45,673 nucleotides of DNA from a virus (IMGVR_UViG_3300033067_001965:1-45673), one strand, 5' to 3'. Counted from the first letter of the stretch, positions 70 to 45,374 are shown. A program made the numbers and translations. The notes: generated by a model from the sequence alone, not told the origin.

Positions 70-125
70 CCCGCTCCAGGCAGCGCCCGCGCGGGCGCTG
101 CCTTTCTCTAACGCAAGGTGAAACG

Positions 126-974
126 ATGCTCGACTTGTCGCACGCTCCGAAGGATGCCAGAATCCAATCGTCCGCCCTGGGCGGGTGGGCTGTCGTCAAC
201 GCGGATTGTCTCTCCGATCCCTCGAAACAGAACCTTGACTACCCCAGTGATGCGGACCTATTTTTCTCCGATCCGCCCTACAACTTCGGGCTGGATTACG
301 GAGACGAGTTTGACGATAGCGTCTCCCGCCACCTTTACCGGGGTTGGCTTGACCGATTGATTTTCGCGGGCGCGGCAAGGCTCATGCCGGGTGGCGCGTT
401 TTGGATCTTACTCCCGGCCGAACACGCCGCGCATGCATTCGTGTACCTGGAGAAAGCGGACTTACTCTTTCGTAACTGGGTGGTCTGGCACGAAACCTTT
501 GGCGTCCAGACTTCAAGGAAGTTCGCGCGGTGTTCCCGACACTTGCTCTACTTTGTCAAGCAACACCCGGCCAGCGCCCGCGCGGGCGCTGGCAAGGCTC
601 CGGCTGCCTACTTTGACCCGACACACATTAAGGTTCAGAGCGTTCGGCAGATGATCGGAGACAAGCGGGCGAAACCGGGCGGCAAGATCCCTGGGGACGT
701 GTGGGAGATTCCCAGGGTGGCCGGTACGCACGCGGAGCGCTGCAAGGAAGTTCCGACGCAACTTCCGGAGGAGCTTTTGCGGCGGGTGGTCTTGTCCACA
801 TGCCCGCCCGCCGGGAAGGTTCTTGAGTTCTGCGCGGGTAGCGGGAGCCTGGGGCGGGTGTGTGTGGAGAACGGCCGCGCCTACGAAGGGTGGGAGATCT
901 CGCCGGTGTTTGCGGACGTTGCCGCGCGCCGAATCCGTGAACGCGAAATGGAACTTTTTGAGGGGAAGAAATGA
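126..974 (+). CDS. DNA N4-cytosine/N6-adenine methyltransferase (beta class)
   Basis: Catalytic SDPPY motif near the N-terminus and SAM-binding VLEFCAGSGS near the C-terminus. The ATG at 126 follows the recurrent AACGCAAGGTG RBS motif. Confidence 0.92.
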   Translation: MLDLSHAPKDARIQSSALGGWAVVNADCLSDPSKQNLDYPSDADLFFSDPPYNFGLDYGDEFDDSVSRHLYRGWLDRLIFAGAARLMPGGAFWILLPAEHAAHAFVYLEKADLLFRNWVVWHETFGVQTSRKFARCSRHLLYFVKQHPASARAGAGKAPAAYFDPTHIKVQSVRQMIGDKRAKPGGKIPGDVWEIPRVAGTHAERCKEVPTQLPEELLRRVVLSTCPPAGKVLEFCAGSGSLGRVCVENGRAYEGWEISPVFADVAARRIREREMELFEGKK

Positions 975-1477
975 AGTGCCAATTTATCGGCTGCGGTGCG
1001 ACCTGGAAGCGGGAGCGCGGCAAGGGCAAGGGGTCAAGGTACTGTGCGGCGCACTTCGGTTGCCGGAGGAACCCAAGCACAAAGATCCCTCCGGAGGTTC
1101 GTGAGGCGCAGTCGCTTTGCGAGTGTGGCAAGCCGCTTTACTTGCTCAAGAACGGCCGCAAGAGCAAGCGTTGTAAGGATTGCAACGGGGCGCTCAAGAG
1201 CTATGCGGTTTCCCGAATCTCCGCCAAGAGAAAGGGGGAGTGCCTGTACGGTTGCTGCCCCCTCGATGCCGTCATGATGCCCTGGAGCAAGCGGGCGGTG
1301 TACTGCGCCGAACACGCCACGAAGTATTACGAACTACGCAAGCGATACAGGGCTGGCAAGCCCCCAGGCAAGCGCGGCCCGAAGAAACGCGCTGCGGTTG
1401 GTGAAGCCGTGACGGACCATCCGCCGGGAGATCTCGGACAAGTCAGCGGGCCTGAACTCCACGAAGACTCGGCTTGA
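971..1477 (+). CDS. Cys/His-rich basic protein, probably zinc-binding
   Basis: Multiple CxxxxC, CxC, CxxC and YCAxH motifs. ATGA coupling to the methyltransferase stop. Confidence 0.7.
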   Translation: MKCQFIGCGATWKRERGKGKGSRYCAAHFGCRRNPSTKIPPEVREAQSLCECGKPLYLLKNGRKSKRCKDCNGALKSYAVSRISAKRKGECLYGCCPLDAVMMPWSKRAVYCAEHATKYYELRKRYRAGKPPGKRGPKKRAAVGEAVTDHPPGDLGQVSGPELHEDSA

Positions 1478-1648
1478 GTTGAGCGCCCGCGCGGGCGCTT
1501 CCAACCCCGGTGGCATGGCCCGCACACAGTCCATTATTGTTGTTCGGTAACTCTGCCCTGGGATCTCGGACGCTGCCGTGAGCATCGCGCGGAGATCCTG
1601 GGAGACGTGAAGAATAACGCCAACTTCGCCGTTTGGTCTGGGTCTCAT
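1334..1648 (-). CDS. Tandem ribbon-helix-helix (Arc/CopG-like) DNA-binding protein
   Basis: Two RHH-like units: VILHVSQDLRAML...SYRTTIMDCV and VFVEFRPADLSEISRRM...TNRSAFLRAAL. It has its own upstream promoter. Confidence 0.6.
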   Translation of the reverse strand: MRPRPNGEVGVILHVSQDLRAMLTAASEIPGQSYRTTIMDCVRAMPPGLEAPARALNSSRVFVEFRPADLSEISRRMVRHGFTNRSAFLRAALAWGLASPVSLA

Positions 1649-1670
1649 AAAGCCTCATTCGGGCCTTGAA

Positions 1671-1716
1671 ATTGTAGGGAATTGGGCTTGACCCGTCAAC
1701 GGGGATTCTGTAATAT
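1671..1716. promoter_or_regulatory. Overlapping divergent sigma70-type promoters
   Basis: Plus strand TTGACC(1688)-17 nt-TAATAT(1711). Minus strand TTGACG(1699)-17 nt-TACAAT(1676). The two -35 boxes form the inverted repeat TTGACccGTCAA. Confidence 0.7.
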
Positions 1717-1757
1717 AGGGAGCGTACCAATCAATGCTCCAGGGGACAGGGGGACTT

Positions 1758-1991
1758 ATGAGAATTGACCAATCGGCGTTCGTCGGCATGGCATCGTCCC
1801 GCCCGTCTGGGACAACGTTCTTTCGCTCCGGCGAAGCCGCCACACTCTACATGCGTGTTGAGCCTGGGGCGGGCGAGTTCACGATTCCGGTCGGATCGGT
1901 GGCAGCCGTCAACGTCAACACCGGAGCCGTGACGGTGTTCGCGGACACAGCGGTTACCTTCCGAGAATTCCAGGCGGTTCCGGTCGGTTGA
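1758..1991 (+). CDS. Hypothetical protein
   Basis: ORF with a G-rich RBS downstream of the rightward promoter. Confidence 0.6.
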   Translation: MRIDQSAFVGMASSRPSGTTFFRSGEAATLYMRVEPGAGEFTIPVGSVAAVNVNTGAVTVFADTAVTFREFQAVPVG

Positions 1992-1998
1992 CGGGCAT

Positions 1999-3027: not shown

Positions 3028-3244
3028 TTGGGCTGGCCCCCCGTCCGCTCTCCCAGGCGGCAAAATGCCGGTTAAGGCGCGAGTACCGACAACGTGGCGT
3101 CAAACCGCGTCAGCAAAGCCGGAGTCTTTTCCCTTGCGCTCCGGTGCTTTGTGTTCCGGGTGGTGACGGATCTAAGGGGACAGTGCTAGCGCCCGCGCGG
3201 GCGCTGCCCCCATCACCATTACAATCCAACACAGGGGTTCGCCA

Positions 3245-3685: not shown

Positions 3686-3734
3686 GCTTGCGACCTTCCG
3701 CGCCCGCGCGGGCGCGGGACACTTCCAGGACTAT

Positions 3735-3828
3735 TTCCAAAAAACTTTCCAAATCGCATTGACGCCCGGAATGCCGGGTGTATCATTACGTTGTCGAGCC
3801 AACCCAACCCCAAACGCAAGGTGCAAAG
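3735..3828 (+). promoter_or_regulatory. Early promoter/RBS cassette, copy A
   Basis: A-tract, TTGACG(3759)-16 nt-TATCAT(3781), then AACCCCAAACGCAAGGTG before the ATG. Close copy at 45370-45461. Confidence 0.8.
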
Positions 3829-3992: not shown

Positions 3993-4694
3993 ATGTCCCG
4001 TAACCTCCAAGCCCACTGGTTGACCTACGACATTCCGCAGCGTAGCGGAATCCGGAACCCGTCGCGGTTCCTGCGCCGCCGAGCGTTCCGCCCGAATAAA
4101 AGCGTGTGGGTGGTATGCAAGGCAGATATCCCCTACAACCTGATTGCGGAGATGAAAGAAAAAGGCGCGAGTGTGTATTGTATCGAATTTGCCGCCCACG
4201 AAAATGACAACCTTGTCGCGCTGGCCATCGCGAGCGTCAAGCGTGACATCATGGAAAAGATCGCGGCCACCCGCCGGATCGTAGCCCAGGCGCAGCGCCG
4301 TGAGCGGGAAGCGATGGACAACGTAGAGTTGAGCGGGGATGAGCGCCGGGAACTGGTAGACTCGCTCCGCGCCCGTGCCAGGACGCAAATTCGCTCCGCG
4401 CGGGCGCTCATGAAAGATCTCCGCGAGTGCTGCGAACGGTTCGGGGTGAGCGAATCGGCGGTTGATCTCGGCGGAGCGCTGGGAGCCGTCAACGCAATCC
4501 AGGAGACGATTGCGGTTAGGGCGCGGGCGGTGCGGAAGGCTGTCGCCAAGATCAAAGAAACCCGCCAGGGAAGCCAGGATGACGCGATCATGGCAGCCCT
4601 GATGTCGGACGCCATGCCCCAGGACATCGCGGCCGATTACCTGGAGGACACGGGGCGCGATGCCTCAGAGCTTCGGGAAGCGTTCGGAAAGTGA
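3993..4694 (+). CDS. Hypothetical protein with an alpha/beta N-terminus and helical C-terminus
   Basis: 233-aa ORF preceded by AACGCAAGGTG. Confidence 0.75.
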   Translation: MSRNLQAHWLTYDIPQRSGIRNPSRFLRRRAFRPNKSVWVVCKADIPYNLIAEMKEKGASVYCIEFAAHENDNLVALAIASVKRDIMEKIAATRRIVAQAQRREREAMDNVELSGDERRELVDSLRARARTQIRSARALMKDLRECCERFGVSESAVDLGGALGAVNAIQETIAVRARAVRKAVAKIKETRQGSQDDAIMAALMSDAMPQDIAADYLEDTGRDASELREAFGK

Positions 4695-5445: not shown

Positions 5446-5513
5446 GAATCGGACTCCATTCTAACACTGGAAAGAAGGTGGCAGCGCCCGCGCGGGCGCT
5501 GCCAATCTATCGG

Positions 5514-7187: not shown

Positions 7188-7245
7188 TCTCCCCCTCCGA
7201 AGGTTTTACGTTGGTTAGAAGTCGCGCCCGCGCGGGCGCGACTGG

Positions 7246-8204: not shown

Positions 8205-8245
8205 GCTAACCTCTGTTTGTGGATATCGCGCCCGCGCGGGCGCGA

Positions 8246-8707
8246 TCACTTGGAGCGGAGACGGACCACTTGAGCCTTGCGCGGCTTGCTGCCCTTATCG
8301 GGGGTGGCAAGCGGCGTGTACGTCCCCCATCCGGTTCCCTTGGATGGGAACTCCAGCTTGAGAACATTGTGAACGTACCGGCCTGGGTACATGGTTTGAA
8401 TCATGCCTTCCGCGATTGTCAGGGAGCAACCGTTGTAGCTGTAGAGCGCCCCTGAGAGGAAGCGGACGAACAGGCGCGGGAAGTAGGTTTCCCCCTCTCC
8501 CCAGTGCCACCAGATTTCCTGGACGTTGGTTGACGCCATCGTAATCGGGAAGCCCGCAATGAGCGTGTTCTCGTTGTGGGTGGGCGCGCGGCCTTGAAGC
8601 TCGGGGATGAGCGGGTTTCCGTCCCTGTCGAGCGGAACCCCGCTCGGGGTCATCCACTCGCCGGAGTTGGGAACCGGCGTTGCTTCCGGAACGTCGTCAT
8701 TGAACAT
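8246..8707 (-). CDS. KTSC domain protein
   Basis: STNVQEI...LFVRFLSGALYSY...GRYVHNVLK matches the KTSC pattern. Confidence 0.75.
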   Translation of the reverse strand: MFNDDVPEATPVPNSGEWMTPSGVPLDRDGNPLIPELQGRAPTHNENTLIAGFPITMASTNVQEIWWHWGEGETYFPRLFVRFLSGALYSYNGCSLTIAEGMIQTMYPGRYVHNVLKLEFPSKGTGWGTYTPLATPDKGSKPRKAQVVRLRSK

Positions 8708-9281
8708 CGTGACTACCCCCGGACCAGATTACTAGGATGTCATCGGGGCGGTTCTTCCATGACCGGAGATCTCGGATCTCTCCCCCAGGGCGCAGGGCAA
8801 CAAGCTCCTCCGCCCATTCCAAGTGCTGTACGTCCTCGATGATGTAGATTCCGCCAGGAGCAAGCATCGGCCACAGGTTGTTGAGTGTGGCCGCTTGATC
8901 GTCTTTCCAGTGGCTTCCGTCGTCGATGATAATCGAGAACTGGACACCGGCAATCATTTCGCAATGTTCGGGGATTGTGGTGTCGCAGCAAAAAGCGTGC
9001 GCGAGCTTCTTTCGCTCGCCCGTCTTCCTGGAGGGATCGTTGTTGAACCTCCTGACTAGCTCGGGGTCTTTCTCCGCCCCAAAGACAACGGCATTTGGGA
9101 AATAACTTTCCCAAGCCAGTAGCGAGTTTCCGTTGAGTACCCCAACCTCCAGGATGGTGAGGAGATCCATGCGGCGAGGGCGGAATAGTTGTTCATAAAT
9201 CATTCCGTAGCTGTGCGCCGTGTCCTTGTCGCTGCCGAAGCGGGTCAAGACTTCCCCGCACAGGTTGCTGTTGTGTTCCAC
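8697..9281 (-). CDS. Class I SAM-dependent methyltransferase (sugar O-methyltransferase-like)
   Basis: SDK..HSY...YE, ILEVGV..G.SL..W..YFP, IIIDDGSH and GGIYIIED motifs. GTG start with a GGGAG RBS. Confidence 0.85.
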   Translation of the reverse strand: MEHNSNLCGEVLTRFGSDKDTAHSYGMIYEQLFRPRRMDLLTILEVGVLNGNSLLAWESYFPNAVVFGAEKDPELVRRFNNDPSRKTGERKKLAHAFCCDTTIPEHCEMIAGVQFSIIIDDGSHWKDDQAATLNNLWPMLAPGGIYIIEDVQHLEWAEELVALRPGGEIRDLRSWKNRPDDILVIWSGGSHDVQ

Positions 9282-9318
9282 TGTGATGACTCCCTTTCTG
9301 CGCCCGCGCGGGCGCTGG

Positions 9319-9963
9319 TTACCTAACCCTCTTGTAGATCGTCCACCAGTCGGGCGATGACTTGAACACCGTTTCACAAATTCCGTCCAGATACCTTACG
9401 GCGTCCTGGGTGGTGTCCCAATTCACGTCATCAAAAATCAGGTAGCCGCCCACCCGGAGCCGGTCGTACCATGTGATAGCATCTTGGAAGGATCTTGTAA
9501 CCGAATGGTTCCCGTCAATGTGGACGTAATCGAGCGATTGCGACTCAAACAGCGAAGCGGCGCACGCCGAAGGGGTACGGAGGATGGCCGCGTGATCCCC
9601 TAGCCCGTAGTGCTGGATGTGCGACAGCGCCCGCGCGTGAAGGTCTTCCCAGGGGACGTGAAGACCCCAATCGTTATGGTTCGCGCGGTCCTCGAATCCC
9701 TCAACCTGCCGCTTGGCATTGTACGGGTCAATGCCGACAATGAACGGGTTGAGGCAGTTCATATCCGTGATGACTGTCTTCTTGCTCGCCAGGGCGAAAG
9801 CCGCCGGGATAAGTGAGCGACCGGCAAAAACGCCGATCTCTACGCACCGGTTGATTTCTGGGTGCGTGCAAATCTCTACGATCTTCTGCGCCTTGTCCTC
9901 GGTACACCACCCGTCACTTTCGCGACAATAGAAGTCGCGCACCTTGTCCATGATCTCTGTCAT
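9319..9963 (-). CDS. Class I SAM-dependent methyltransferase (Methyltransf_24-like)
   Basis: VEIGVFAGRS, LDYVHIDGNH and GGYLIFDD motifs. Confidence 0.85.
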   Translation of the reverse strand: MTEIMDKVRDFYCRESDGWCTEDKAQKIVEICTHPEINRCVEIGVFAGRSLIPAAFALASKKTVITDMNCLNPFIVGIDPYNAKRQVEGFEDRANHNDWGLHVPWEDLHARALSHIQHYGLGDHAAILRTPSACAASLFESQSLDYVHIDGNHSVTRSFQDAITWYDRLRVGGYLIFDDVNWDTTQDAVRYLDGICETVFKSSPDWWTIYKRVR

Positions 9964-11084
9964 ACATGCACCATGAGGTTGGAAATTTCGTCGTGGGAAA
10001 ACTCGCCAAGAAGGATCTCGCTGTCTTGGTGGCCCGCACTGACGAACCAAGTTCCGTTCTCCAGGAACGCGCCGCACGGGTAGATGACGGTCTTGTCCGG
10101 GGTGACGTTCGCGCCGTCGGTCCTGGCGTCGGCTGCCCACACGCTCCCAGGGGTCATGCGCGTGATTCGCTCGGGGCCGAACTCATACACGCCCGTTGAA
10201 TAGGTGTAGTGGTTGCCGTCCCGCCGGTAGCCGTGGAACCAGTGCCACCACAGGTTTTCACCAACCTTGACGGGCGGCGCGCCGCCCCGAATCTCCCAGC
10301 CCTGCATTGACAGCGCCCGCGCGGGCGCTGTTCTCAACTCGCCGTTGCCGCCTGGGTGGAACGTGAACCGCTGAAACGGGCTTGAGCGATAGATTATGTC
10401 CAGTCCGGAGCCTGTGTCATACGGCATCCAGTTCTTTTCGATGCGCGACAGCTTGACCCCAGGAACACTTTCGAGCGTCCACTCTGAAAGCGGCAGCGCC
10501 CCCGATTGATCGGCCGCGATCCCAGGAACAGAAATGACTTGTCTGGTGTGGAGATCTCCGGAGACAATGGATAGACCGGCATATATCATGCCAAGCCTAC
10601 CATTTGCCAGAAATAAACGCGGGTCTTCCGCGCCGCATGAGACGCTAGGCACCGCCGGTTTGTACAGGTACGAAGCCAAAACCTCGAACGTGTCCGACAG
10701 GTTGGCAATACGAACGCTCGGCGCGTCTTCCCCGAGACCGTACCACCCGGATCGGTACGCCATGAGAAGCTTCCCCATGTGCCGAATCACGGAGCCGTTG
10801 AATACCCTTTGGCCTGGGAGAGTTGACGGAGCTACGATCCTGCGCACGCGATCCGGCGCGGCAATGGTGTAGTCGCGGCAGAAAGACCCGCAGCCCTTGC
10901 ACGAACAAACGATTTCACCAAGGGGCTTGTGAGGGCTGCCACACTTGACCCACTGCTTGACGGGGCTTTCCCCTGGGGGTGGCGCGCTGGGGCTGCCGCG
11001 CTCGATGCACAGTGGCAGCGCCCGCGCGGGCGCGGATGGTGAAGTGTTCGGCGCGGCCGCGCCGATAAGGGGGAGCTTTTTCAT
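9960..11084 (-). CDS. GH130/GH43-like five-bladed beta-propeller with an N-terminal Cys-rich segment
   Basis: FNGSV, EDPRLF, EKNWMP, IRGGAPP and VIYPCGA motifs. Confidence 0.7.
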   Translation of the reverse strand: MKKLPLIGAAAPNTSPSAPARALPLCIERGSPSAPPPGESPVKQWVKCGSPHKPLGEIVCSCKGCGSFCRDYTIAAPDRVRRIVAPSTLPGQRVFNGSVIRHMGKLLMAYRSGWYGLGEDAPSVRIANLSDTFEVLASYLYKPAVPSVSCGAEDPRLFLANGRLGMIYAGLSIVSGDLHTRQVISVPGIAADQSGALPLSEWTLESVPGVKLSRIEKNWMPYDTGSGLDIIYRSSPFQRFTFHPGGNGELRTAPARALSMQGWEIRGGAPPVKVGENLWWHWFHGYRRDGNHYTYSTGVYEFGPERITRMTPGSVWAADARTDGANVTPDKTVIYPCGAFLENGTWFVSAGHQDSEILLGEFSHDEISNLMVHV

Positions 11085-13732: not shown

Positions 13733-13766
13733 GATGAGACCCCGGTTGCCGCGCCCGCGCGGGCGC

Positions 13767-14342: not shown

Positions 14343-14374
14343 TGAGCCTCACGCGCCCGCGCGGGCGCTTTCTA

Positions 14375-15751: not shown

Positions 15752-15791
15752 TTGTTATTCCGATCAAGTTACACGCGCCCGCGCGGGCGCG

Positions 15792-17774: not shown

Positions 17775-17816
17775 CTATCCCCCATCCCCCATCCCGCGCC
17801 CGCGCGGGCGCGACTG

Positions 17817-19274: not shown

Positions 19275-19307
19275 GATGAAAACTCCAGCGCCCGCGCGGG
19301 CGCTATG

Positions 19308-29316: not shown

Positions 29317-29377
29317 TGTCTAACCCCTGTTGAAGTGCTGCCGCGCCCGCGCGGGCGCGGCAGGTGTGCGTTTTCGC

Positions 29378-30443: not shown

Positions 30444-30504
30444 GTGATGACTCCTTGAATGTGGCCAAGCCGCGCCCGCGCGGGCGCGGCGTTTGGGGGA
30501 TATT

Positions 30505-32559
30505 TTACTCTAGCCTGATTCCCGTGGCAATATCAGTGTCGCGGATTGTGTGCAAACGCACGTTAGATTCGCGGTTGTCCATCTGACGGGTAACCCATTC
30601 GTCTGACAGGATCTTGAGCGTACAGTGCGTGTCATCAACCCCGAGCGCGAGTAGCCACTGACCGGCAGCGTACACGGCACCACCCGGCCACACCACCCCG
30701 TTCTTAATCACCTTCTCCCCCGGTCCTGGGGCGGTTGGCCAGATGATCGGCACGGGGGTTTGACGGATGACACGGTAGGGCTTCCGCTCCTCGAAATCCA
30801 GCGCGCCAACCGTGTAGATATTTCCCGAATTCTTTTTCAAGCATCCGTGAAAGAACATGCGGAAATATCCGTCACGGCGAACCGGACAGGCTCCGCCACG
30901 GATGACGCCACCCGCCCAGGGGAGCGGGTTCGGGGTCTTGTGGACATCGGGGCCATCGAACACGATGTGAGACGGAGACCACTGGTATCCAATCTTAATT
31001 GCAGTGTCAACCGAATCGTCCCAACTCACGAACGGCATCCAGTTTTTTTCGTAGGCGCTACCCACTGGCGACTTGTATACCTGTGTCGCTTCGATGCGCT
31101 TGAGATCCCGCGAGAACATCACCATGCCCATTGATACCGTCTTCGCGGGGTAGCCGTTGGGGATGGAGACCATTGCGGCCAACCGCCACTCAACAACCTT
31201 CTCCCCGCTGGCGATGTCGTCAACCACGAACGGCGCGTAGAACGCTCGCGGGTCTTCCATGCGAGTGACTTCCGTCATGTTCGATCCACACGAGCTAATC
31301 GGCCGCACGCTCCACGTACCTTCCCAGTCTTTCGGGTCAAGTGTCGCGCCCGCGCGGGCGCTGTTCTTGAGTTCCCACACACCAATCTTGGAGTGTCCCC
31401 AGCCGTCACGGGTCAAGAGAATGAGACTGTCTCCAACGCGACAGATTGACGGGTTGAAATGCCCTTCCGGGAGCGGCAAGCGGTCCCGGGGCTGCGGGCT
31501 GGCCGGTAGCGCGTTACGCTCCGTGCAAAACTTGCAGTCGATCACGGGGAATCCGCTTACGGCCGTGTTCGCCTTGTCCGGTACGTCCCGGTGGTGGCAC
31601 AGCGCGCCGTACCTCCCGCACATGGACGTTGGAATGTTGCGCCCGCTCGGCCCGTGTACGGCAACCTCTTGCGTGATCTCACCCCGGTACATGCAGCCGT
31701 AGGGGTCAAGCACGGAGAGCGTAGCTTGCGCGTCCTTCCACTGCTGTTCCGGGTCTTGGCTTCCCGTGCGGGCGCTGGCAAGCTCGCTTTCGGTGGCCGC
31801 AAGTCCTGGAGTCGTTGGCCTGGGTGCGTCGGAAACGTCGATACAGGACGGTTCCCATTCGGGCTTGCCACTGTCGGAAAGCCCGTCAGCGTATGCGTAG
31901 GTGCGCTGTCGGACGAGTGACGGCAGGTACGCGCCCCATTTGATGATACCCGGCCGTAGCACACGCTCGAATAGCTGTTGATCCATGTTTTTTTCGGCCA
32001 CGGTCATACAGTTGGACATTGCCCACAGTCCCGACGATCCGCGCCGGAGGTTGAGAGCGTAAGCGTGCGTGCCGAACGGGTAGTCAAGGTGGCAATACGG
32101 GCTGTCCGGACCACCGACGCGACCGCTGACTTTGTTCCAAACCGCCGGTTCTTGCTCGGCAAGACCCAGGAAGAGAAGATCCCAGTTCTTCTGCCGCTCC
32201 GTGAATCCGTCGATGATGTCACACACCCGATTTGCGTAGTCGCTCGGCAAGCTCACGTCATCCTCGAACACGATCACCACGTCTGAGCCGTGGCTGATAT
32301 TCTTCTGTTCCTCCAGCAAGTGTTGCCAGAGCGCCCAGTGGGTCATGTTGAGCGCGACGTGTCCCGGTTCGATCCGTTTCCCCGCGTCGTATTCCTTGGT
32401 GGTCTCAATGCCCCAAGTTTTGCCGTGGAACGCTCGCCAGAACCGCCAGTCGAGAACGTACTTGCCCAGTGGTGTCGAGTCGCGAACCGCGTTCAAATGC
32501 TCGGCACACTTTACCTTGCGGTCGGGTAGCTCGTCACAGGCAATTACATAGTGTCGCAT
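30505..32559 (-). CDS. GT25-like glycosyltransferase fused to a Cys-rich linker and a GH130-like beta-propeller
   Basis: H..LW..L, VIVFEDDV, WDLLFLG and GTHAYAL, followed by FNPSI, EDPR, EKNWMPF, IRGG and VVWPGGA. Confidence 0.8.
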   Translation of the reverse strand: MRHYVIACDELPDRKVKCAEHLNAVRDSTPLGKYVLDWRFWRAFHGKTWGIETTKEYDAGKRIEPGHVALNMTHWALWQHLLEEQKNISHGSDVVIVFEDDVSLPSDYANRVCDIIDGFTERQKNWDLLFLGLAEQEPAVWNKVSGRVGGPDSPYCHLDYPFGTHAYALNLRRGSSGLWAMSNCMTVAEKNMDQQLFERVLRPGIIKWGAYLPSLVRQRTYAYADGLSDSGKPEWEPSCIDVSDAPRPTTPGLAATESELASARTGSQDPEQQWKDAQATLSVLDPYGCMYRGEITQEVAVHGPSGRNIPTSMCGRYGALCHHRDVPDKANTAVSGFPVIDCKFCTERNALPASPQPRDRLPLPEGHFNPSICRVGDSLILLTRDGWGHSKIGVWELKNSARAGATLDPKDWEGTWSVRPISSCGSNMTEVTRMEDPRAFYAPFVVDDIASGEKVVEWRLAAMVSIPNGYPAKTVSMGMVMFSRDLKRIEATQVYKSPVGSAYEKNWMPFVSWDDSVDTAIKIGYQWSPSHIVFDGPDVHKTPNPLPWAGGVIRGGACPVRRDGYFRMFFHGCLKKNSGNIYTVGALDFEERKPYRVIRQTPVPIIWPTAPGPGEKVIKNGVVWPGGAVYAAGQWLLALGVDDTHCTLKILSDEWVTRQMDNRESNVRLHTIRDTDIATGIRLE

Positions 32560-32579: not shown

Positions 32580-35051
32580 TTACAGTGGCTTTCGCGCCCG
32601 CGCGGGCGCTGGTACTCTCTCGGGTGTTTGACTGCCAACCGCCCATGATGTACGGCTTGACGTGTCCCCCAGTACGGCCGTCATCATGGTGGTTGATTTG
32701 TAGTGTGAGATTACGAATGCGTCGGCGTCGTCTGGGCTGCGCCGCAACCGCTTCTTGAAGTCCTTCTTGCTCTCTACGCGGGTACGGCCAACAAGAACCT
32801 GATAGCTCGGGGCAAGTAGCTGGAAGCGGAGGCGCGTGAGAACGTCTCCGCTGAGGCGCGAAACGTCAATGCATCCGCACCGCGCCAAGTCGCGGGCGTT
32901 GAACCACATCTCTGAGCGCCGGTCGGTGTAGTGCTGGGGATCGTCGGCGCGCTCGCTGACGATTAGACCCATCCAGTTCCACCCGTCGTTGAGTGAGTAC
33001 ACACCAACCCCAGGCCCGTCCATTTCGATGATCGTTAGCACTTCCTCCGGCCGAAGCGGTGGCCGGTCATCGGTGGCCAGGGAGTTGTAGTATTGTGCGT
33101 AGGTCTCGGACAACATGCGGATGTGTTCGGCGGTGCGATTGGGTAGCCAACCGTTCCGGTACTCATGGTGTACGGAGACTCCCCCGATGCGAACATGAAA
33201 GCAACTGTCATCGTCACCATAGGTAGCGACATCAACCCCGATGGTGACTCCGCTCCCGCGCTGCCACTCGGCATAGAGGTTTCCCCGTGGGTTGGTCATT
33301 GCGGCCCATTCAAGTTCGCTGAAGATGGTATCTACGCCCGACGTTGGGCGTAGACCCATCGCGCGGCACTTGAACAGCGGCCCCGGTCTTATCCAGGTTC
33401 CTCCCCCAATGTACCCGCTTCCGTGACAGCGCGGACAAGGGCAATCCCCGGACAGTGCTGGTACGCCTCCGGCATGTCCTTGCTCTCCACTCGGACAATC
33501 AGTTTCGGGTTGAACCCGTCCAGCATCAGCCGTTCCATCTTGCACAGCGCCGATGAAAGATTGCTCACTTCCTCCGCGATCCCCGCTTGCTTGCTCTGTA
33601 CCCGGTAGCCCTTGACGTTCTCCACTCGGGGGAACCAGTTCATTGTCGCTTCCGTTTGCATCGTCCACAGCCGAAACGGAACGTACCGGCTCATCATGTG
33701 GGCGCACGATACCCGGAACTCCTGGAGATCCGCCGATTCCCAGACCTGGAGTTCCCCCGCCCGATCCTCCCACTCGAATCGGCAGGGCTGAATCTGGTAG
33801 GTCTTGACCGGGTTGACCGCTTCCAGGGACATCGGCCCTGGGAAGTGTTGCACCACCCCGTTGAGACAGTCCTCCGCGCTGATGTGCTTCTCGGTCAGCA
33901 TCTCCGCGAATCGCTTCGTTACGTCCATCATGGACATTTGGAACTTGGTCGCAAAGTGATACCAGTGGAGTTTCCAGGTTCTCGCGTGGACGAATGTCAT
34001 CGTGTGGAGGAACCCGCGCCGACAGGATTCCTCCGTCTTCGGCGCTTGGCCTTCCGCCTTCAGCCACTTTTTCAACCGGTCTTTCTCGCTCATGATCCCG
34101 TTCCTTCTCTCTGGGTGTTGAGGCGTCAGCCTCAGTGATGGATTGGGGGTCTCCCCCAATCCCCGCGCCCGCGCGGGCGCAGTCAGGGCACTCTAGACGC
34201 GGAGGAAATTCCACGTCTGATTCCAGGCGGTCTGCCGCGTGGGGAACCGGTGTAGTCCAGTCCTGTACCCACTGCCGAACCATCGGCAGCGTAACGGCCG
34301 ATGGGATGGGCGCAGGTTTCCCAAGTAGCTGCGCCCGGATGTTTGGATGGTTGAGTGAAGATAGCGTGTGTAGCTTCCACTTGGGGCTACCGTCCGGGTT
34401 ACAGGCTAGATCCTCAATGTAGCTCTGTGAGGATGTGGTTAGCGGGTTGCCGACGACAAGGACCGCGTGCCCTTGGTCCGGCTGGTACATCGTATCTAAG
34501 CTTGTCCAATAGTGCGAGTCTATGCCCTCGGATTCATCGAAGACAAAAAGCATGTACGCGCGGTGGCGACCGTGAAAACTTTCGCTTTTGCGCGCCGTGT
34601 ACCCCTTTGCCCAGTGTTCGGGGCTGGAGTACATCTCTGGCGCTCGCGGGCCAGAGAAATTACTCGGCAGGTTCGCGCGGATGCGTTGGAGCCGTATTTC
34701 CGTCCACAGCAAGTCTATCACGTCCCGTTCCGTGGGCGCGGTGGTGATGATAACCCCAGGGTCTCGGGTATCCCACCACCAGTTGACGATTGCCGCGCAG
34801 ACGGACGTTTTGCCGACACTGTGGCCGCTGTTCACCTTGACGCGGCCCGGCATGTCTGCCGCGATCTTGGCTTGATCCTCCGTAAGCGTCATCTTGAGTA
34901 CATTGGCAATGTAACCAAGGGGATCATCCCGGTACACTTTGGCGATGTCGTCCGACTGGGGCCTTGTGACGTATTCGGCAATGGCGCGGAGCGGCAGCCG
35001 CTTCCGCAGCGCCCTGGCAATCGCCCGTGCAAGCCCGTTACTCTCGCCCAT
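32580..35051 (-). CDS. terL: Terminase large subunit with an ~265-aa insertion
   Basis: Walker A SGHSVGKT, Walker B FVFDESE, coupling motif VGNP, and nuclease motifs IGVDVATYGDD and SPDDADA. Confidence 0.92.
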   Translation of the reverse strand: MGESNGLARAIARALRKRLPLRAIAEYVTRPQSDDIAKVYRDDPLGYIANVLKMTLTEDQAKIAADMPGRVKVNSGHSVGKTSVCAAIVNWWWDTRDPGVIITTAPTERDVIDLLWTEIRLQRIRANLPSNFSGPRAPEMYSSPEHWAKGYTARKSESFHGRHRAYMLFVFDESEGIDSHYWTSLDTMYQPDQGHAVLVVGNPLTTSSQSYIEDLACNPDGSPKWKLHTLSSLNHPNIRAQLLGKPAPIPSAVTLPMVRQWVQDWTTPVPHAADRLESDVEFPPRLECPDCARAGAGIGGDPQSITEADASTPREKERDHERERPVEKVAEGGRPSAEDGGILSARVPPHDDIRPRENLETPLVSLCDQVPNVHDGRNEAIRGDADREAHQRGGLSQRGGATLPRADVPGSGQPGQDLPDSALPIRVGGSGGGTPGLGIGGSPGVPGIVRPHDEPVRSVSAVDDANGSDNELVPPSGERQGLPGTEQASGDRGGSEQSFIGAVQDGTADAGRVQPETDCPSGEQGHAGGVPALSGDCPCPRCHGSGYIGGGTWIRPGPLFKCRAMGLRPTSGVDTIFSELEWAAMTNPRGNLYAEWQRGSGVTIGVDVATYGDDDSCFHVRIGGVSVHHEYRNGWLPNRTAEHIRMLSETYAQYYNSLATDDRPPLRPEEVLTIIEMDGPGVGVYSLNDGWNWMGLIVSERADDPQHYTDRRSEMWFNARDLARCGCIDVSRLSGDVLTRLRFQLLAPSYQVLVGRTRVESKKDFKKRLRRSPDDADAFVISHYKSTTMMTAVLGDTSSRTSWAVGSQTPERVPAPARARKPL
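33389..34093 (-). CDS. Nested 234-aa protein in an alternative frame inside terL
   Basis: AGAAGGA RBS plus ATG. Globular-protein composition, whereas the terL frame here is low-complexity. Confidence 0.65.
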   Translation of the reverse strand: MSEKDRLKKWLKAEGQAPKTEESCRRGFLHTMTFVHARTWKLHWYHFATKFQMSMMDVTKRFAEMLTEKHISAEDCLNGVVQHFPGPMSLEAVNPVKTYQIQPCRFEWEDRAGELQVWESADLQEFRVSCAHMMSRYVPFRLWTMQTEATMNWFPRVENVKGYRVQSKQAGIAEEVSNLSSALCKMERLMLDGFNPKLIVRVESKDMPEAYQHCPGIALVRAVTEAGTLGEEPG

Positions 35052-35052
35052 A

Positions 35053-35421
35053 TCAGAGCGCCCGCGCGGGCGCTTCCTCTGTCGTTCGTTTGACCCGGTT
35101 ATTGATTCCCCGTAACCCGAGCTTGGAGATCTTGACCAGCACGGCTTTCGGGGTTCGGTTCAGGGCGCGGGCAATCAGGCACACTTTGACTTTGCCCACG
35201 TTCTGACGCATGTACTCCGTCTCCTGCGCCGTCCATCTCCTTTGCGTGAGCTTGATCTCGTGTCGCCTGCGCGCGTGATGCGCCGCGTTGTAGACGGCGT
35301 TCTCGCTGGCCCCCGTTCTCCTGGCGATGTCCCTAACCAGCCTCTTGCGGTCGCATCGCCGTAAGTCGGGGTCAATCACCCCCAGGAGATCGAAGTAGTT
35401 CCGCCCGTCCCTCCAGTTCAC
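35053..35421 (-). CDS. Myb/HTH-like DNA-binding protein
   Basis: RRWTAQETEYM...IARALNRTPKAV. GTGA coupling to the upstream gene. Confidence 0.7.
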   Translation of the reverse strand: MNWRDGRNYFDLLGVIDPDLRRCDRKRLVRDIARRTGASENAVYNAAHHARRRHEIKLTQRRWTAQETEYMRQNVGKVKVCLIARALNRTPKAVLVKISKLGLRGINNRVKRTTEEAPARAL

Positions 35422-35891: not shown

Positions 35892-35947
35892 GATAGACTC
35901 CAGGGGTTGGGTGAGACAGCGCCCGCGCGGGCGCTGTCCATTGATGC

Positions 35948-36190: not shown

Positions 36191-36257
36191 TTTTCACCTT
36201 GCGTTTGGGGTTAGGTTGGAGGAGACAGCGCCCGCGCGGGCGCTGTCTGGGTGTTGT

Positions 36258-37266: not shown

Positions 37267-37334
37267 GTCCTTGACTCCAAACAGTCGGGCGGTTGGCATT
37301 GTAGCACGCGCCCGCGCGGGCGCGTAGCTGATTT

Positions 37335-37730: not shown

Positions 37731-37779
37731 GTCCGAGACTCCTGGAGAGCGCCCGCGCGGGCGCGATGATTGTGGTTTG

Positions 37780-39529: not shown

Positions 39530-39598
39530 GATGGCACCTATGAAGACAGCGCCCGCGCGGGCGCTGTCTGGAGGTTGTCAATGTGCTGCCCTGTCCCG

Positions 39599-40735
39599 TC
39601 ACTCGGCGGAAGCGTCCTTGGTATTGTCCTTGCTGCCCTCGAATGACTTTTCGGCGGCAAGCCCCTTCATCGTGTCTTCAAGATCCTGGAACGCATCCAG
39701 GAGCCGCCCCAGGACCGTCAGGCGGTGCTGACCAAACTCGTCTGTCTGGATGTCAAAGCCGAACTTCTCTAAGCTGGCGCGAGCGTGCGGCGCGAGATCC
39801 GCACGGGTCAAGCTCGATTCGACCAACCGCGCCAGGTTGCCGACGATCCCACGGGTAACTTTGGGAAGACCCGTATCAGAGATCTTGGCGATTTGCGCGG
39901 CCCGCGCTTCGGCTTCCACTTGCTCCGGGGTCTTTCCGTCCGCGTTCGCGGCGCTCGTGGGCTTGTCGGCCCCTTCCGTCAAGCTCGGGTCATCCGCCAC
40001 GGGCGCGGCGGCTTCCTTTGTCACCTTCACGAGCTTGCCACCCCGGAGGGATTGCCCGCGCTCCTCCAGGGCACGCCACAGCGCCCCAGTCGAAGCCCCC
40101 ACCGCAGCCGCCGCGGCGCGCTGACCGCCCACCTTGCAGACTTCCGCGAGAAGGTCCGCATCATCCAGGAGCGTATTGATCGCCTTGCGAACGTCCCTGT
40201 CGGTGCGGGTCTTCCCGTGTGCGGCGTTCTGGCGCAGCGCCCATTTCTTCGCTTCCCTTTCCGTCATCTTCCAAACGATGACCGGAACGTCCTTGATCTT
40301 CGCCTTTTCGTAAGCCGCACCGCGATTGAACCCCGAGAAGACAACCTTCTTGACCCCGGTGTCTGCGACGTAGAGCGGCGGGAAGACCACCCCATCGGTC
40401 ATGAGTTCCGCGTATCTCGTCGCGGTGTCTTCGTTGACCAGTTCCGCGCGCATCTGGTACGCGCCGTCAAAGGTCAATTCCTTCCACGGCAACACCAGAT
40501 GCTCGCCACCCTCCGGGCACTCGGCGCGGGAGATCGTGTCTTCCTTCTTGCCGCCCTTCTTGCCGCCCTTGGCAGCTTCGGCCGGTTGCTCCGTGGCGTC
40601 GGTCTTGGTTTCCCGGATCTCAACCGGGAACGGGTTCGCATCGCTACCCGCGTTCACCAAGCTAAACGTCTCGTTGCCGTCGATGACTTCGTTTTGCACG
40701 TTCGATTCCTTGTTGTTCTTTTTCGACTTCGCCAT
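39599..40735 (-). CDS. ParB/Srx-like N-terminal domain protein with an HTH
   Basis: YQMR...YAELM..G..FPPL.V...VFSGFNR.AA...N..HG, followed by the HTH-like QRAAAAAVGASTGAL. Confidence 0.8.
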   Translation of the reverse strand: MAKSKKNNKESNVQNEVIDGNETFSLVNAGSDANPFPVEIRETKTDATEQPAEAAKGGKKGGKKEDTISRAECPEGGEHLVLPWKELTFDGAYQMRAELVNEDTATRYAELMTDGVVFPPLYVADTGVKKVVFSGFNRGAAYEKAKIKDVPVIVWKMTEREAKKWALRQNAAHGKTRTDRDVRKAINTLLDDADLLAEVCKVGGQRAAAAAVGASTGALWRALEERGQSLRGGKLVKVTKEAAAPVADDPSLTEGADKPTSAANADGKTPEQVEAEARAAQIAKISDTGLPKVTRGIVGNLARLVESSLTRADLAPHARASLEKFGFDIQTDEFGQHRLTVLGRLLDAFQDLEDTMKGLAAEKSFEGSKDNTKDASAE

Positions 40736-40817: not shown

Positions 40818-40845
40818 ATACTACACCCGTCGGCGCGGGTGTCAA
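40818..40845 (-). promoter_or_regulatory. Promoter of the ParB-like gene with an inverted repeat in the spacer
   Basis: TTGACA-16 nt-TAGTAT, CACCCG...CGGGTG inverted repeat, and a 5' UTR hairpin at 40777-40800. Confidence 0.7.
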
Positions 40846-40907
40846 GTTTTTTCTAAAAGTTTTCCGTTTTGACTTCGGCTTGAACTTCCGCGCCCGCGCG
40901 GGCGCGG

Positions 40908-41588: not shown

Positions 41589-41653
41589 GATCTAGACTCC
41601 TGTTTGGGGTTAAGGGAGCCGCGCCCGCGCGGGCGCGGCCATTTGAACAGATA

Positions 41654-41923: not shown

Positions 41924-41988
41924 TTAATTGCCCCCTTGATAAGTTAGAGAGGTATCGGCCGCGCCCGCGCGGGCGCGGCCGATACGGG

Positions 41989-42267: not shown

Positions 42268-42380
42268 CGTGTCACCTTGCGTTTGGGGTTTCGTCGCGTC
42301 GGGTAACTCGCCCGACACTGGAATAATACTCCCGGCTGCGCTGGTGTCAACACGAATTGGGAAAGTTTTTCCGAATTCCT
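42268..42380 (-). promoter_or_regulatory. Early promoter/stem-loop/RBS cassette, copy C
   Basis: TTGACA(42350)-16 nt-TATTAT(42328), hairpin GTCGGG/CCCGAC, and an RBS block identical to copy B. Confidence 0.85.
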
Positions 42381-42384: not shown

Positions 42385-42837
42385 TCAGTGCGCCCGCGCG
42401 GGCGCTGGAAATTCCTCCGTGTCGCTCGGACTTCGGCTGTTGAGGATCGACCAAATGAGCGCGGCCAGTTGCGGGCGGGTGGTGTCCAGTTCCGTATCAT
42501 CCCACCAATTCAGAAAGTACCGGCAACCGGCCGGTTCCCCTACCAACTGGTCACACTCAAACGTGAGTTGCGCGAAACGCTCCTCCAGGTCTCCCACCTT
42601 GTTGACACCGTAACCCCTCCAAATCGCGTAACAGGCCGCGTCCGCAGCCGTCACGGTTTCGTCGGCGTTTGCCGGTGTGGGTTTCGGGAGGCAGCCCACA
42701 CCGCGCACGATTGTTTCGTCCTTGGCCTCCAGCGCGTTCACCAGTGCCAGGAGAGCGGTCGTTGACAGTTGAGGCGCGATCCCGTCTCGGAAAACTCGTT
42801 GCCAGGGCAACAGTTCCTTTTGAGTCGTCACAAGCAT
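42385..42837 (-). CDS. Conserved hypothetical protein resembling a Gemmataceae family
   Basis: WQRVFRDGIAPQLST...GEPAGCRYFLNWWDDT. Family assignment is from recall and needs a BLAST check. Confidence 0.65.
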   Translation of the reverse strand: MLVTTQKELLPWQRVFRDGIAPQLSTTALLALVNALEAKDETIVRGVGCLPKPTPANADETVTAADAACYAIWRGYGVNKVGDLEERFAQLTFECDQLVGEPAGCRYFLNWWDDTELDTTRPQLAALIWSILNSRSPSDTEEFPAPARAH

Positions 42838-42982
42838 TTGAGGCTCCCTATAGTTTGGGTGACACTGTACTTTACACGCGCCAGGCGAACGGAGCAAGCG
42901 AAGTAGAAAAGTTTTTTGGGTTTGACATGGCTCCGGGATGGTGGTAAATACTCCCTGCCCAACCACCAACCCCAGAGGTTTC

Positions 42983-43243
42983 ATGTTTGAAGTAACGAGT
43001 TCCGAAGTGCTGGAGTACCCGAACGCCACAGGCGGGACGTGTTTCCTGTGGTCCGTGGAAGTGGAGTCTATCGACGCCAAACGCGCGGCGCGAAACGGAG
43101 AACTGTACTACCTGTCACTGGACGGCATCCAGCCCACAGAGGTCGGGGCGCGGCTGGCCATTGCCGGAGCTATCCGCCGGATCGCCAGAGACCTAGAAGC
43201 TTGCGGCTGGAAGCTCCTGGGAACCCAAGTAAGCGCGGGCTAG
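42983..43243 (+). CDS. Hypothetical protein
   Basis: GAGG RBS and an upstream TTGACA at 42922. Confidence 0.6.
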   Translation: MFEVTSSEVLEYPNATGGTCFLWSVEVESIDAKRAARNGELYYLSLDGIQPTEVGARLAIAGAIRRIARDLEACGWKLLGTQVSAG

Positions 43244-43666
43244 GTCTTCCCTCATGGTGCGACGGGCCAGCGCCAGCGCGTCGCACCATGACATATCAGA
43301 CCCCTCGGACATGATCGCCGCGCGCTCCTCCACTTCCGCCGCGTCAAGCTCGATGCACTCAACGTAACTTGCTACCTGGAACTCCGGAGCGTCCCAGGGC
43401 GCGGGCTGCAACCGCTCCAGGATGTCTGGAGCGTAGCTCCGCAGATAGCCCGCCATCTTGACGGCTTCAATCGACGCGGTTGGTCCCCTCATCTCAAGAC
43501 CCGTCCCGTGCAAGAGGAACGTAACGCCGATGTTCGCACACTGATACAAGAAGTCGCTTACATTGCGTGGGGCGCGCATGTTGGGCACTGGGCTTGGGGG
43601 ATGCCCCTTGTCGGGGCGAACGATGATCCTGACTCCTGATTCGATCACTTCACACCATCCATTCAT
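43193..43666 (-). CDS. Protein with a TubC_N-like domain and an EERAAIM motif
   Basis: CANIGVTFLLHGTGLEMRGP...LRSYAPDILERL and EERAAIM...W.DA..LA. Confidence 0.6.
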   Translation of the reverse strand: MNGWCEVIESGVRIIVRPDKGHPPSPVPNMRAPRNVSDFLYQCANIGVTFLLHGTGLEMRGPTASIEAVKMAGYLRSYAPDILERLQPAPWDAPEFQVASYVECIELDAAEVEERAAIMSEGSDMSWCDALALARRTMREDLARAYLGSQELPAASF

Positions 43667-44067
43667 CTAGGAAAAGTCTTCCCTGTAACGCAATTCCCTA
43701 TCTTGCAATTGCCGCGCCGCAATTCCGGAATTGTTACGGTAAAGATGCACTTTGAGTTCTCCAGGTTCGCGCCCGCGCGGGCGCGAACCCTGTTTGTGAT
43801 TGGACACTTAGTTTCTGGAGTCTCTGGCGACCATACGAAAAAGGGGTAGTACAACAGAGTGTACTACCCCTAGCCCTGGGATGTCGCCCAATCACCCGCA
43901 GGGTTTACGCTCCCGGCGCGCCGCAGTGACAACGCGCCGGGTGGCCTTGCCCCTGGAGGACAGGCAAGGCTCTGTGTTTCGGCTCCGGGTATTTCGGGGA
44001 ACTCCCGGCGGTACAGCCCACCCGCACCGCCGGGAGCGTCCAACCACCGAAAACCCCAACACTGGCC

Positions 44068-44095
44068 AGTATAGGGCTACTGGAGATCCTGTCAA
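44068..44095 (-). promoter_or_regulatory. Sigma70-type promoter in the long non-coding region
   Basis: TTGACA-16 nt-TATACT. Confidence 0.6.
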
Positions 44096-44213
44096 CCCGA
44101 GACCGGCGAATTTCCCGGAAATTCTGGAAATCCCTTGAATCGGCCGGAAGACGTGATAAAAAGAAATGGTCCGGGGTCATCGGCCTGCAAGCCTACCCGG
44201 ACCATAAGCAATG

Positions 44214-44258
44214 GGGTGTACACGGGAATACTACCCATCTGTATTCCCGTGTACACCC
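44214..44258. repeat. 18-bp perfect inverted repeat
   Basis: GGGTGTACACGGGAATAC-N9-GTATTCCCGTGTACACCC. Confidence 0.9.
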
Positions 44259-44853
44259 ACGTTTTGAAAAAATCTTGCAGAAATTCCCCGCACAGGGAGC
44301 GGGGGACGTGTTCCACCCGAGCGTTACCGTGCGCGGTTCGGGTGCGCTGTAGCGCCCGCGCGGGGCGCTAGTATCCGACTACCCTACACCACGGAACCGT
44401 CAAATCGGCCTGGAGGGATCGGATATCAACCGCCAACCCCCGTTCCTGACGACTCCTTAAAACGGGAAACTGGTTGAGCGGCTGGCAGGATGAAAATCCC
44501 GGATGCCAGCACAAAATACCGGGATCGTGTCGCTCCTCCCAGGTTATACGGGATGGTCTCACGGCTCCTCTTGCAACCAATGCCGGAGGAGTCGATATGC
44601 GCAGCCGTCCCGATTACCGGGATGGTTTGGGATTCACTGGAAGGTTACGACTCATGACGTGTGCGGCGGAGCAATGGTTAAAGCTCGCAAGAAGCTCCCA
44701 GGTTGAGTTATAACGGCCGATGCCGCACACGGGAAGCAAAAACAACCCCTAAGCGATCCTGGCGCAAATACGGGCTTAGGGCAAAAAGCGTGCCTTGTGT
44801 AACAAAGTTCCTGGAATCTTGCCAAGCGCCCGCGCGGGCGCAGAAGGGGAGTC

Positions 44854-45111
44854 ATGAACATCGACGACATTTCTGATGAAGCGGTGGTGTCCCTGGGGCT
44901 GTTGCTCGCCGGGAGAGAATACGTCATCGGGGTGGATAGCTCTAGCCTGTGCGTTGTGTGCGTTGACGGGCTGGCGCGGTGGATCGGAGACGAGCTAGAC
45001 GAGCTTTTCGCCTGCGGGCTGGTCTCGGAAGTCTCGGGGAGCATCCAGGTTGCCGAGAACGCGGGCTACTGGCACGAAAAGCTTTGCAAGAAAAGGAGAC
45101 TGGTCAAGTGA
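44854..45111 (+). CDS. Hypothetical protein, possibly winged-helix-like
   Basis: GGGGAG RBS and LDELFACGLV. Confidence 0.6.
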   Translation: MNIDDISDEAVVSLGLLLAGREYVIGVDSSSLCVVCVDGLARWIGDELDELFACGLVSEVSGSIQVAENAGYWHEKLCKKRRLVK

Positions 45112-45374
45112 GTACCCTACTCGGACTTGTGCCCCTGGAGATGTGGAGAGTATTGCGACCCAGCCCGACTACTGGGCAAATCTGGTTTCGGCAACAACTC
45201 CTCAGAGAAGCCTACAACAACCCCGACGCGCCCGCGCGGGCGCGGATGACCCGAGACGACATCCGGCGGGAATACTGGCTACTCTCCAGGGAAGTGGCGC
45301 AGACAGAGTTCAGGCTCTGCGCCCGCCGCATCTGCCGGGAACACTACCGGGATCTCCGCCGGAACTCTTTTTAA
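45108..45374 (+). CDS. Hypothetical protein
   Basis: AAGGAG RBS and GTGA coupling. Confidence 0.6.
   Translation: MSTLLGLVPLEMWRVLRPSPTTGQIWFRQQLLREAYNNPDAPARARMTRDDIRREYWLLSREVAQTEFRLCARRICREHYRDLRRNSF

Follow-up and report, generated by a model that had tools for sequence, protein, structure and literature searches.

An even lattice of 44 invariant palindromes in a phage genome and its candidate ParB-family reader

The 45,673-bp virus record IMGVR_UViG_3300033067_001965, a single contig of 59.8% G+C that we call the window at its full length, carries 44 exact copies of a perfect 16-bp palindrome placed about once per kilobase, and our analysis supports selection on both the palindrome word and its spacing. 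Judging from sequence comparisons among related elements, the palindromes are probably read by the phage's own ParB-family protein, encoded at 39599–40735 on the minus strand. We put at roughly 60% the probability that this protein, acting as its better-studied relatives do, loads at the 44 palindromes as a sliding clamp covering the whole phage genome. The arrangement resembles the KorB/OB system at higher density and without ParA, and is very likely a ParB-family protein-site system.

Results

A direct count places the 44 copies between positions 83 and 45243, with gaps of 309–2021 bp, a mean of 1050 bp and a coefficient of variation (CV) of 0.45, in agreement with the count, range and mean given in an earlier reading of the sequence (the original prediction). 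Near matches number two, one with a single mismatch (25051) and one with two (14599); dinucleotide shuffles of the window give 0.21 expected matches at up to two mismatches, and an order-3 Markov model 0.0003 expected exact copies. None of 100,000 uniform placements equalled the observed minimum gap, maximum gap or CV, which bears out the earlier claim that the spacing is unlike random placement. We called 53 genes, with starts picked by hand; this assigns 31 copies to intergenic DNA and 13 to coding sequence, and 28 of the 38 junction gaps of at least 16 bp hold a copy; the junction majority described before (31/44) and the use of all three frames stand, while the figure of about 15 coding copies becomes 13. 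The intergenic copies by themselves leave gaps of 4451, 5298 and 5447 bp, which the coding copies fill. When the 31 intergenic copies kept their places and only the 13 coding ones were redistributed randomly within coding sequence, the probability of a maximum gap of 2021 bp or less was 2e-5, and 0 of 50,000 placements attained the observed CV; sampling all 52 gene junctions does not reproduce the spacing either, and the evenness thus survives nulls built on gene structure (p ~2e-5). For 8 of the 13 coding copies, deleting that one alone creates a gap above the 2021-bp maximum. All four genes longer than 2 kb carry an internal copy, as had been claimed, and between the first and the last copy every base lies within 1010 bp of a site.

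Logan contigs of run X1, possibly the window's own sample, cross up to six copies within one 6-kb piece, and because such contigs bridge several copies each, the lattice is unlikely to be an assembly artefact. (Relative to the window, runs X1 and X2 have nine extra bases at 18572.) Spacing set by gene length, a host repeat and faulty assembly, the outcomes that the original prediction had set against its claim of selection on the DNA site and its spacing, were each looked for and none occurred; the claim itself is supported.

The candidate reader has 378 aa, with a disordered N-terminus, a ParB-N domain (~aa 78–171), a helix-turn-helix (HTH, ~193–225) and a helical C-terminal domain. First family searches returned weak ParB-like matches, and the Pfam ParB_N score is 16.4, below the curated threshold of 26.3. 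The GxxR motif is intact, as GFNR; a 30-homologue alignment shows its arginine 138 at no less than 90% conservation and keeps the glycine too, and the profile of this alignment matches Myxococcus ParB structures. An AlphaFold2 model, with a predicted local distance difference test score of 78.7, comprises the ParB-N, HTH and helical C-terminal domains. Its structural matches are to chains of ParB, Noc and KorB (the last including 8qa8 and 8qa9) over ~145–155 columns with E values of 8e-7 to 2e-4, ParB and Noc best. As modelled, the protein appears to have the full set of ParB-N, GxxR, HTH and C-terminal domain expected of a KorB-like reader. No ParA was found, either as a family match among 59 open reading frames (ORFs) of the window or as a convincing Walker A gene in six frames, and no KorA/TrbA-like clamp-locking partner was identified, in a window that may be incomplete; the ParA-binding motif LG(R/K)GL was not found in the protein.

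Relatives were sought by capsid, by ParB and by the word. The window gene 21958–23457 was taken to be the capsid gene because of its size and its place in the gene order, and it matched no family; short contigs of a diverged relative in run X2 cover parts of it (window 22237–22831) at depth 23–39. Its three closest capsid relatives in IMG/VR (G001, G002 and G003; capsid 58–64%, 102–119 kb) show neither a ParB match nor a lattice across 104, 100 of 102, and 119 kb; the same holds for five further capsid-found stretches (18–40 kb). A metagenome-assembled genome (MAG) found by capsid alone, G004, has a sister 12-mer with the same central 8 letters, in 20, 14 and 12 copies on three phage contigs; these hold 46 of 51 copies, with 5 in the other 7.85 Mb, and one of them carries a ParB homologue. 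A repeat near the capsid gene of G060 was rejected as a host-wide element of repetitive extragenic palindromic (REP) type, with 56 copies.

The ParB profile matched 33 of 252 genomes of G004's family. In 41 stretches around ParB matches (2–20 kb each), 14 score at least 4 for dispersed palindromes, 12 of them clearly, against scores of at most 3 and no lattice in 20 random host stretches taken as controls (0/20); co-occurrence of lattice and ParB gives a Fisher p of 0.006, among kin that are not independent. Set aside before the count were three arrays of clustered regularly interspaced short palindromic repeats (L184, L186, L196), a stretch with four copies of a GC-only 12-mer (L183) and a double-hairpin repeat judged REP-like by eye (L181). 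Nine of 52 ParB matches lay outside the 41-stretch set, and two of the nine were examined later, giving the lattice of G187 and a four-copy cluster on contig C60 of G192. Two G046 copies with a short ParB that has no C-terminal domain are without a lattice.

Where lattices occur, they are confined to discrete elements: 22 of 23 word copies within 46 kb in G206, 20 of 23 in two islands in G205, all 11 on two contigs in G192, 43 of 44 within 49 kb in G187 and 49 of 50 in three islands in G314. Terminase and portal genes are present in G206, G192, G187 and G004, and integrase genes at the island edges in G206, G187, G205 (contig C288) and G314. The three ParB-bearing islands of G314, on contig C1, have a common 18-bp palindrome at up to one per 650 bp, together with terS- and integrase-like genes and no capsid found; the islands of G205 and G314 look like smaller satellites.

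An all-against-all comparison left ParB as the sole family common to all 8 lattice elements. Across 11 elements word likeness tracks ParB identity (Mantel rho 0.61, p 0.0008, inflated by kin pairs). The elements whose word has a CCCGCGCGGG centre fall into one 15-row ParB clade that includes the window protein (support 94/76, not starred), and they have S-x-G in common at the start of the recognition helix. The words of G205, G192 and G206 agree with that of the window at 14 of 16 letters, yet these elements have no capsid or terL match to it, whereas G004, with capsid 57% and terL 55%, agrees at 12 of 16 and G187 at 10 of 16. The word thus appears to follow ParB kinship and to run against capsid and terL likeness.

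One member of the ParB cluster is named Urbifossiella sp., a genus that we take to belong to the Gemmataceae, and the single capsid match in genome_contigs is a Planctomycetia MAG; since ParB and capsid homologues point there, we associate the phage with planctomycetes. The window 16-mer was found in 10 of 151 planctomycete genomes, a set that may not include the true host, at 1–3 copies each, which argues that it is not a generic host repeat, and the candidate explanation as a REP- or highly iterated palindrome (HIP)-type repeat was dropped. IMG/VR has the 16-mer in 95 stretches, with at most two per contig in the best 80 of these, and the G206-type 16-mer occurs in 62 viral stretches, at most two per contig and without a lattice. 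The G187-type word gave two multi-copy viral records, one of which, a 47.6-kb provirus, is apparently the G187 element itself and not independent. The ParB protein had no match in viral_contigs, weak ParB-N matches at most in cultured-phage and plasmid collections, and two weak tblastn matches among 50,697 phage records, neither named as a mycobacteriophage. A word-first search of the 252 genomes found clusters, among the matches listed, in three genomes already known for ParB. In the MAG G008, which has no ParB match, three exact window 16-mers lie within 640 bp at a contig end (C136:5713–6354), in and near a terS-like gene beside a primase-like AAA gene.

In the window, G206 and G192 the ParB gene comes after an Erf-like annealing gene; in G187 and G004 helicase genes follow it, and G004 also has a CI-like repressor of its own nearby. 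Upstream of the ParB gene of the window, at 40818–40845 on the minus strand, lies a sigma-70-type promoter-like site whose -35 element is 44 bp downstream of the palindrome copy at 40890. Similar distances separate copy 42390 from the site at 42323–42350 (minus strand, 39 bp), copy 25932 from the site before the head genes at 25865–25893 (minus strand, 38 bp) and copy 3700 from the site at 3759–3786 (plus strand, 43 bp), so that 4 of 10 promoter-like sites, hand-picked from scans and counted post hoc, have a copy 38–44 bp upstream of -35. Four near-identical sigma-70-type promoters, at 45394 (plus strand) and at 42350, 40845 and 36539 (minus strand), share upstream sequence rich in A and a spacer that is GC-rich and partly inverted; this spacer is possibly a second operator for another regulator.

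Intergenic copies were located at 83–98, 1483–1498, 2237–2252, 3189–3204, 3700–3715, 5484–5499, 7224–7239, 8228–8243 (taking the ATG start at 8204), 9300–9315 (taking the start at 9281), 13751–13766, 14353–14368, 15775–15790, 17796–17811, 19288–19303, 20727–20742, 21872–21887 and 23474–23489 (after and before the presumed capsid gene), 24045–24060, 29343–29358, 30472–30487, 35919–35934, 36228–36243, 37308–37323 (before terS), 37749–37764, 41621–41636 and 41961–41976, the last with arms longer by at least 8 further pairs. Two flank the ParB gene, 39549–39564 (34 bp past its stop) and 40890–40905 (154 bp ahead of its start), and three, at 43769–43784, 44826–44841 and 45228–45243, lie in a stretch without a called gene (43667–45461). 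The sole 1-mismatch copy, 25051–25066, lies in gene 24068–25789 and divides a 1887-bp gap.

The 13 coding copies use the frames APARA, ARAGA and RPRGR six, five and two times, and the peptides PARA, ARAG and PRGR in called genes are encoded by the exact palindrome in 13 of 13 cases. The ARAGA frame is used at 574–589, in a DNA methyltransferase gene, and at 25932–25947, in the final codons of gene 25925–26767; the same gene has an RPRGR copy at 26420–26435, and a second RPRGR copy lies in an unaligned linker of the portal gene (27676–27691). APARA copies are found twice in gene 9960–11084 (10313–10328 and, close to the N-terminus, 11018–11033), in an Ala/Gln-rich linker of gene 17817–18752 (18539–18554) and in the final codons of terL (32594–32609), of the HTH gene ending at 35053 (35058–35073) and of gene 42385–42984 (42390–42405). 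Comparison of 11 of the 13 with homologues gave a mixed answer to the idea that they are lineage-specific insertions: the copy at 31346–31361, in the GT25-like gene, lies within an 8-residue insertion relative to the G001 homologue, and that at 34165–34180 at the 5' edge of a lineage-specific terL insertion, upstream of a nested ORF, but the copy at 12867–12882, in an 878-aa gene, replaces codons that are collinear, in a gap-free alignment, with two homologues. The remaining copies compared are mostly in unaligned or poorly aligned linkers or ends.

The terL gene (32580–35051) has an insertion of ~265 codons that four homologues lack, with a CxxC motif on either side. Within it, in another frame, lies a 234-aa ORF (window 33389–34093, minus strand) with a normal codon signature and a third-position G+C of 0.78, against 0.43 in the terL frame; synonymous resampling gives a chance of 0.0004 that the terL frame stays open throughout. 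This ORF matches no known family and gave no usable Atlas match, and it appears to be a dual-coded nested gene. Elsewhere in the window, a 233-aa protein is encoded at 3993–4694 (plus strand); Atlas leads scoring <0.9 connect it to viral clusters whose fold is PaaX/Cas2-like or ChrB-N.

Over the 88 half-sites the outward flanking base is T in 42, G in 41, A in 5 and C in none. The flank rule proposed before (A/C on the left, T/G on the right) is therefore real, but part of it is ordinary restriction-site avoidance: GGCGCC is avoided genome-wide (0 seen, ~33 expected), which accounts for the lack of outward C, though not for the scarcity of outward A. Strong avoidance of 6-bp palindromes extends to G001, and with the 16-mers masked 23 of the 64 are absent from the window (GGATCC, 0 against 24 expected), which suggests a host with many restriction systems.

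Discussion

Let us assume that the protein encoded at 39599–40735 binds each palindrome as a dimer, and that the bound dimer then closes into a nucleotide-gated clamp that slides and spreads. Dimer binding, nucleotide-gated closure and sliding are inferred from KorB, ParB and Noc (PMC11790492, PMC13768133, PMC12704722); which nucleotide such a protein uses is reported to be unpredictable from sequence (PMC12704722). The ~1-kb spacing would then leave no part of the genome more than ~1 kb from a loading site, and coding copies would be retained since long genes would otherwise leave unloaded stretches. The output that we rank slightly ahead, though only tentatively, is KorB-like genome-wide transcription control after infection or induction; it is favoured by the position of the gene among recombination and replication genes, the lack of a ParA and the 4 of 10 promoter-like sites, that of the gene itself among them, with a copy 38–44 bp upstream of -35. 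A physical coat, which would condense, separate or shield the replicating phage DNA, is a reasonable second possibility, and some other output is rather unlikely. With the ParB gene beside Erf-like and helicase genes, and G004 having its own CI-like repressor, we infer that the protein acts once infection or induction has begun, and not during lysogeny. Among the roles suggested by the original prediction, that of loading sites now has a named candidate reader, while nothing that we found points to packaging, ejection or anti-defence.

Several observations weigh against such a loading scheme. A ParB gene is not sufficient for a lattice: 29 of the 41 ParB stretches lack a clear one, including 5–6 from the 15-row clade to which the window belongs, of which several are on short contigs; G159, too, has a full-length ParB beside terL and no clear lattice. 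Most lattice elements were located via ParB, so that the presence of ParB in them is partly by construction, and the four-copy cluster on C60 of G192 has only a partial A1 match, on an unrelated-looking protein. Conversely, among the matches listed by the word-first search, G211 has a chromosome-wide scatter of 33 copies without ParB, and a viral fragment that was also found through its word, G316 (18% complete), has 15 copies and no ParB match. Five of six sister lattices tested for evenness are no more even than random (p 0.09–0.85; the sixth, p 0.024); even spacing is special to the window genome. Because ParB spreading is reported to cover 10–15 kb (PMC12409273), one site per kilobase is far denser than a canonical clamp would need, which leaves two options: short-range sliding by this clamp, or occupancy as an end in itself. 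The authors of the Cluster O mycobacteriophage report considered the ParB-like protein of those phages unlikely to act in genome stability (PMC4351075). Finally, the arms of the palindrome are extended by at least 3 pairs beyond 16 bp in 16 of 44 copies, against 2.3 expected from half-site preference. Such extension, which exceeds chance in 4 of the 5 sister sets as well, is not needed by a protein dimer and would instead favour a hairpin or cruciform, or template switching.

These extended arms are an argument for the least improbable of the alternatives, that the palindrome acts as a stem-loop in RNA or single-stranded DNA (in processing, stability, pausing or recombination), mainly at gene ends, with ParB merely travelling along. 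Intergenic copies have more extra arm pairs than coding ones (2.3 against 0.9), the folding z scores of four selected intergenic copies are -4 to -6.5, and the filling of most junction gaps is in line with this explanation. However, arms can also grow in the absence of selection, by template switching at palindromes. Not one letter of stem or loop varies among the 44 copies, no compensatory change is seen, and the putative loop is a palindrome in its own right; three coding copies and one intergenic copy fold barely or not better than shuffles (z -1.8 to +0.9). Three scans called only 6 of 44 copies, on either strand, terminator-like, and intrinsic terminators, as hairpins with a U-run at gene ends, were rejected on that count. 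The tracking of ParB kinship by the word would also be left unexplained, and overall we consider a stem-loop role unlikely.

Quite unlikely, too, is a different reader, be it another phage regulator or a recruited host nucleoid, repair or replication factor. The second HTH gene of the window (ending at 35053), the many ParB loci without a lattice and the GC-rich CGCG-type centre of most words, which might reflect a common host reader, speak for it. Yet no family but ParB is common to all 8 elements, the 16-mer stays at three copies or fewer per genome in the 151 planctomycete genomes, and the words differ among elements of related hosts and track the phage ParB.

If instead the copies were recombination linkers for swaps of gene cassettes, or a selfish mini-repeat propagating through gene conversion, no reader would be needed. 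The preference for gene boundaries, the copy at the edge of the terL insertion, the copy that is an 8-codon insertion and the deletions between repeats reported in Cluster O (PMC4351075) would agree with this, but nine copies lie well within genes, one of them overwriting collinear codons, the gap filling (p 2e-5) and near absence of decayed copies (one with one mismatch) argue for purifying selection, and the ParB link goes unexplained, making this explanation improbable. Very improbable is a stoperator-like lysogeny system in which the protein keeps the integrated prophage silent through a transcription block at each junction. Sister lattices do span integrated elements, and the stoperators of Cluster A, those of L5 included, are likewise numerous repressor sites (more than 20 per genome), often located in short spaces between genes; but they are asymmetric 13-mers oriented with transcription and bound by a monomer unrelated to ParB (PMC9283540), so that we rejected the class for a perfect, symmetric palindrome. 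The ParB gene, moreover, has recombination and replication genes as its neighbours, a CI-like repressor is encoded separately in G004, and no integrase was found in the possibly incomplete window.

Among described systems, the loading of a ParB-family clamp at the window lattice is closest to KorB/OB of the IncP-1 plasmid RK2, in which a protein with nucleotide, HTH and C-terminal domains acts at palindromes spread round a mobile replicon, with twelve OB sites in ~60 kb at a few bp to >1 kb from promoters (PMC11790492, PMC13768133). Palindromes dispersed on the replicon and rare outside it are found in the window and in the sister islands alike. The window differs in being a phage rather than a plasmid, in its 44 sites in 46 kb (~5x denser, invariant and even), in having no ParA/IncC found and no KorA-like partner identified, and in being known here from sequence alone.

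The original prediction did not recognise the lattice as a described element, but a printed precedent exists in the Cluster O mycobacteriophages, whose genomes hold more than 30 invariant palindromes each, intergenic and genic, that are absent from the host (PMC4351075). The reader of these 17-bp dyad repeats is unknown, with the ParB-like Corndog gp90 among the candidate DNA binders, and the repeats have 7-bp arms around a variable 3-bp spacer and become denser toward one end (PMC4351075), whereas the window word has no variable spacer and is evenly spaced. The word itself differs, neither of the two weak tblastn matches is named as a mycobacteriophage, and the covariation of word and ParB across elements has no counterpart in that report, where no ParB link is shown. 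Two methyltransferase-24 genes, one GH130-like and one GT25-like gene flank the structural genes of the window (8697–11084 and 30505–32559, minus strand); genes for methyl- and glycosyltransferases likewise lie close to the head genes of Cluster O (PMC4351075).

The parS/ParB and Noc/NBS systems share a 16-bp palindrome for a ParB-type HTH with the window, and ParB and Noc are the best structural matches of its protein. The NBS sites of Noc are dispersed, while parS sites are few, clustered and ParA-dependent. Noc acts without ParA (PMC12704722). Partition of the ParABS kind is ruled out for the window by the lack of a ParA found, the lack of an LG(R/K)GL motif and the 44 evenly spread sites. 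BisD/bisS of ICEclc is likewise a ParB-like clamp of an integrated element, with palindromic loading sites and control of distant genes, but has two bisS sites, a fused activator domain, the partner BisC and an upstream ParA (PMC12409273).

Genome-wide phage palindromes have been unexplained since the Cluster O report, and orphan phage ParB proteins are mostly without a known target. A literature search, made mostly without subscription journals and without supplements, found no paper tying a phage palindrome lattice to a ParB reader; new here are the matched series of words and proteins and their sharp confinement to integrated elements. In this ParB family each of several spellings of the word comes with its own matching protein, and some of these pairs lie in integrated prophages of contiguous genomes, so that binding, nucleotide use and specificity swaps can be tested together; orthogonal pairs would be usable as DNA-labelling tools. 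If the coat is the true output, a small phage would have a novel means of organising or protecting its entire chromosome. A broader proposal, which we hold to be doubtful at present, is that a ParA-free ParB clamp and a private, co-evolving palindrome code, repeated at each kilobase and even within genes, build a phage-specific chromatin in planctomycete phages and satellites, the protein coat marking phage DNA as self and condensing, shielding or sorting it in the host. If true, the ParB switch would have, besides segregation and promoter control, a third use in such phage chromatin, which would also account for the orphan lattices of palindromes in many phages, those of Cluster O included.

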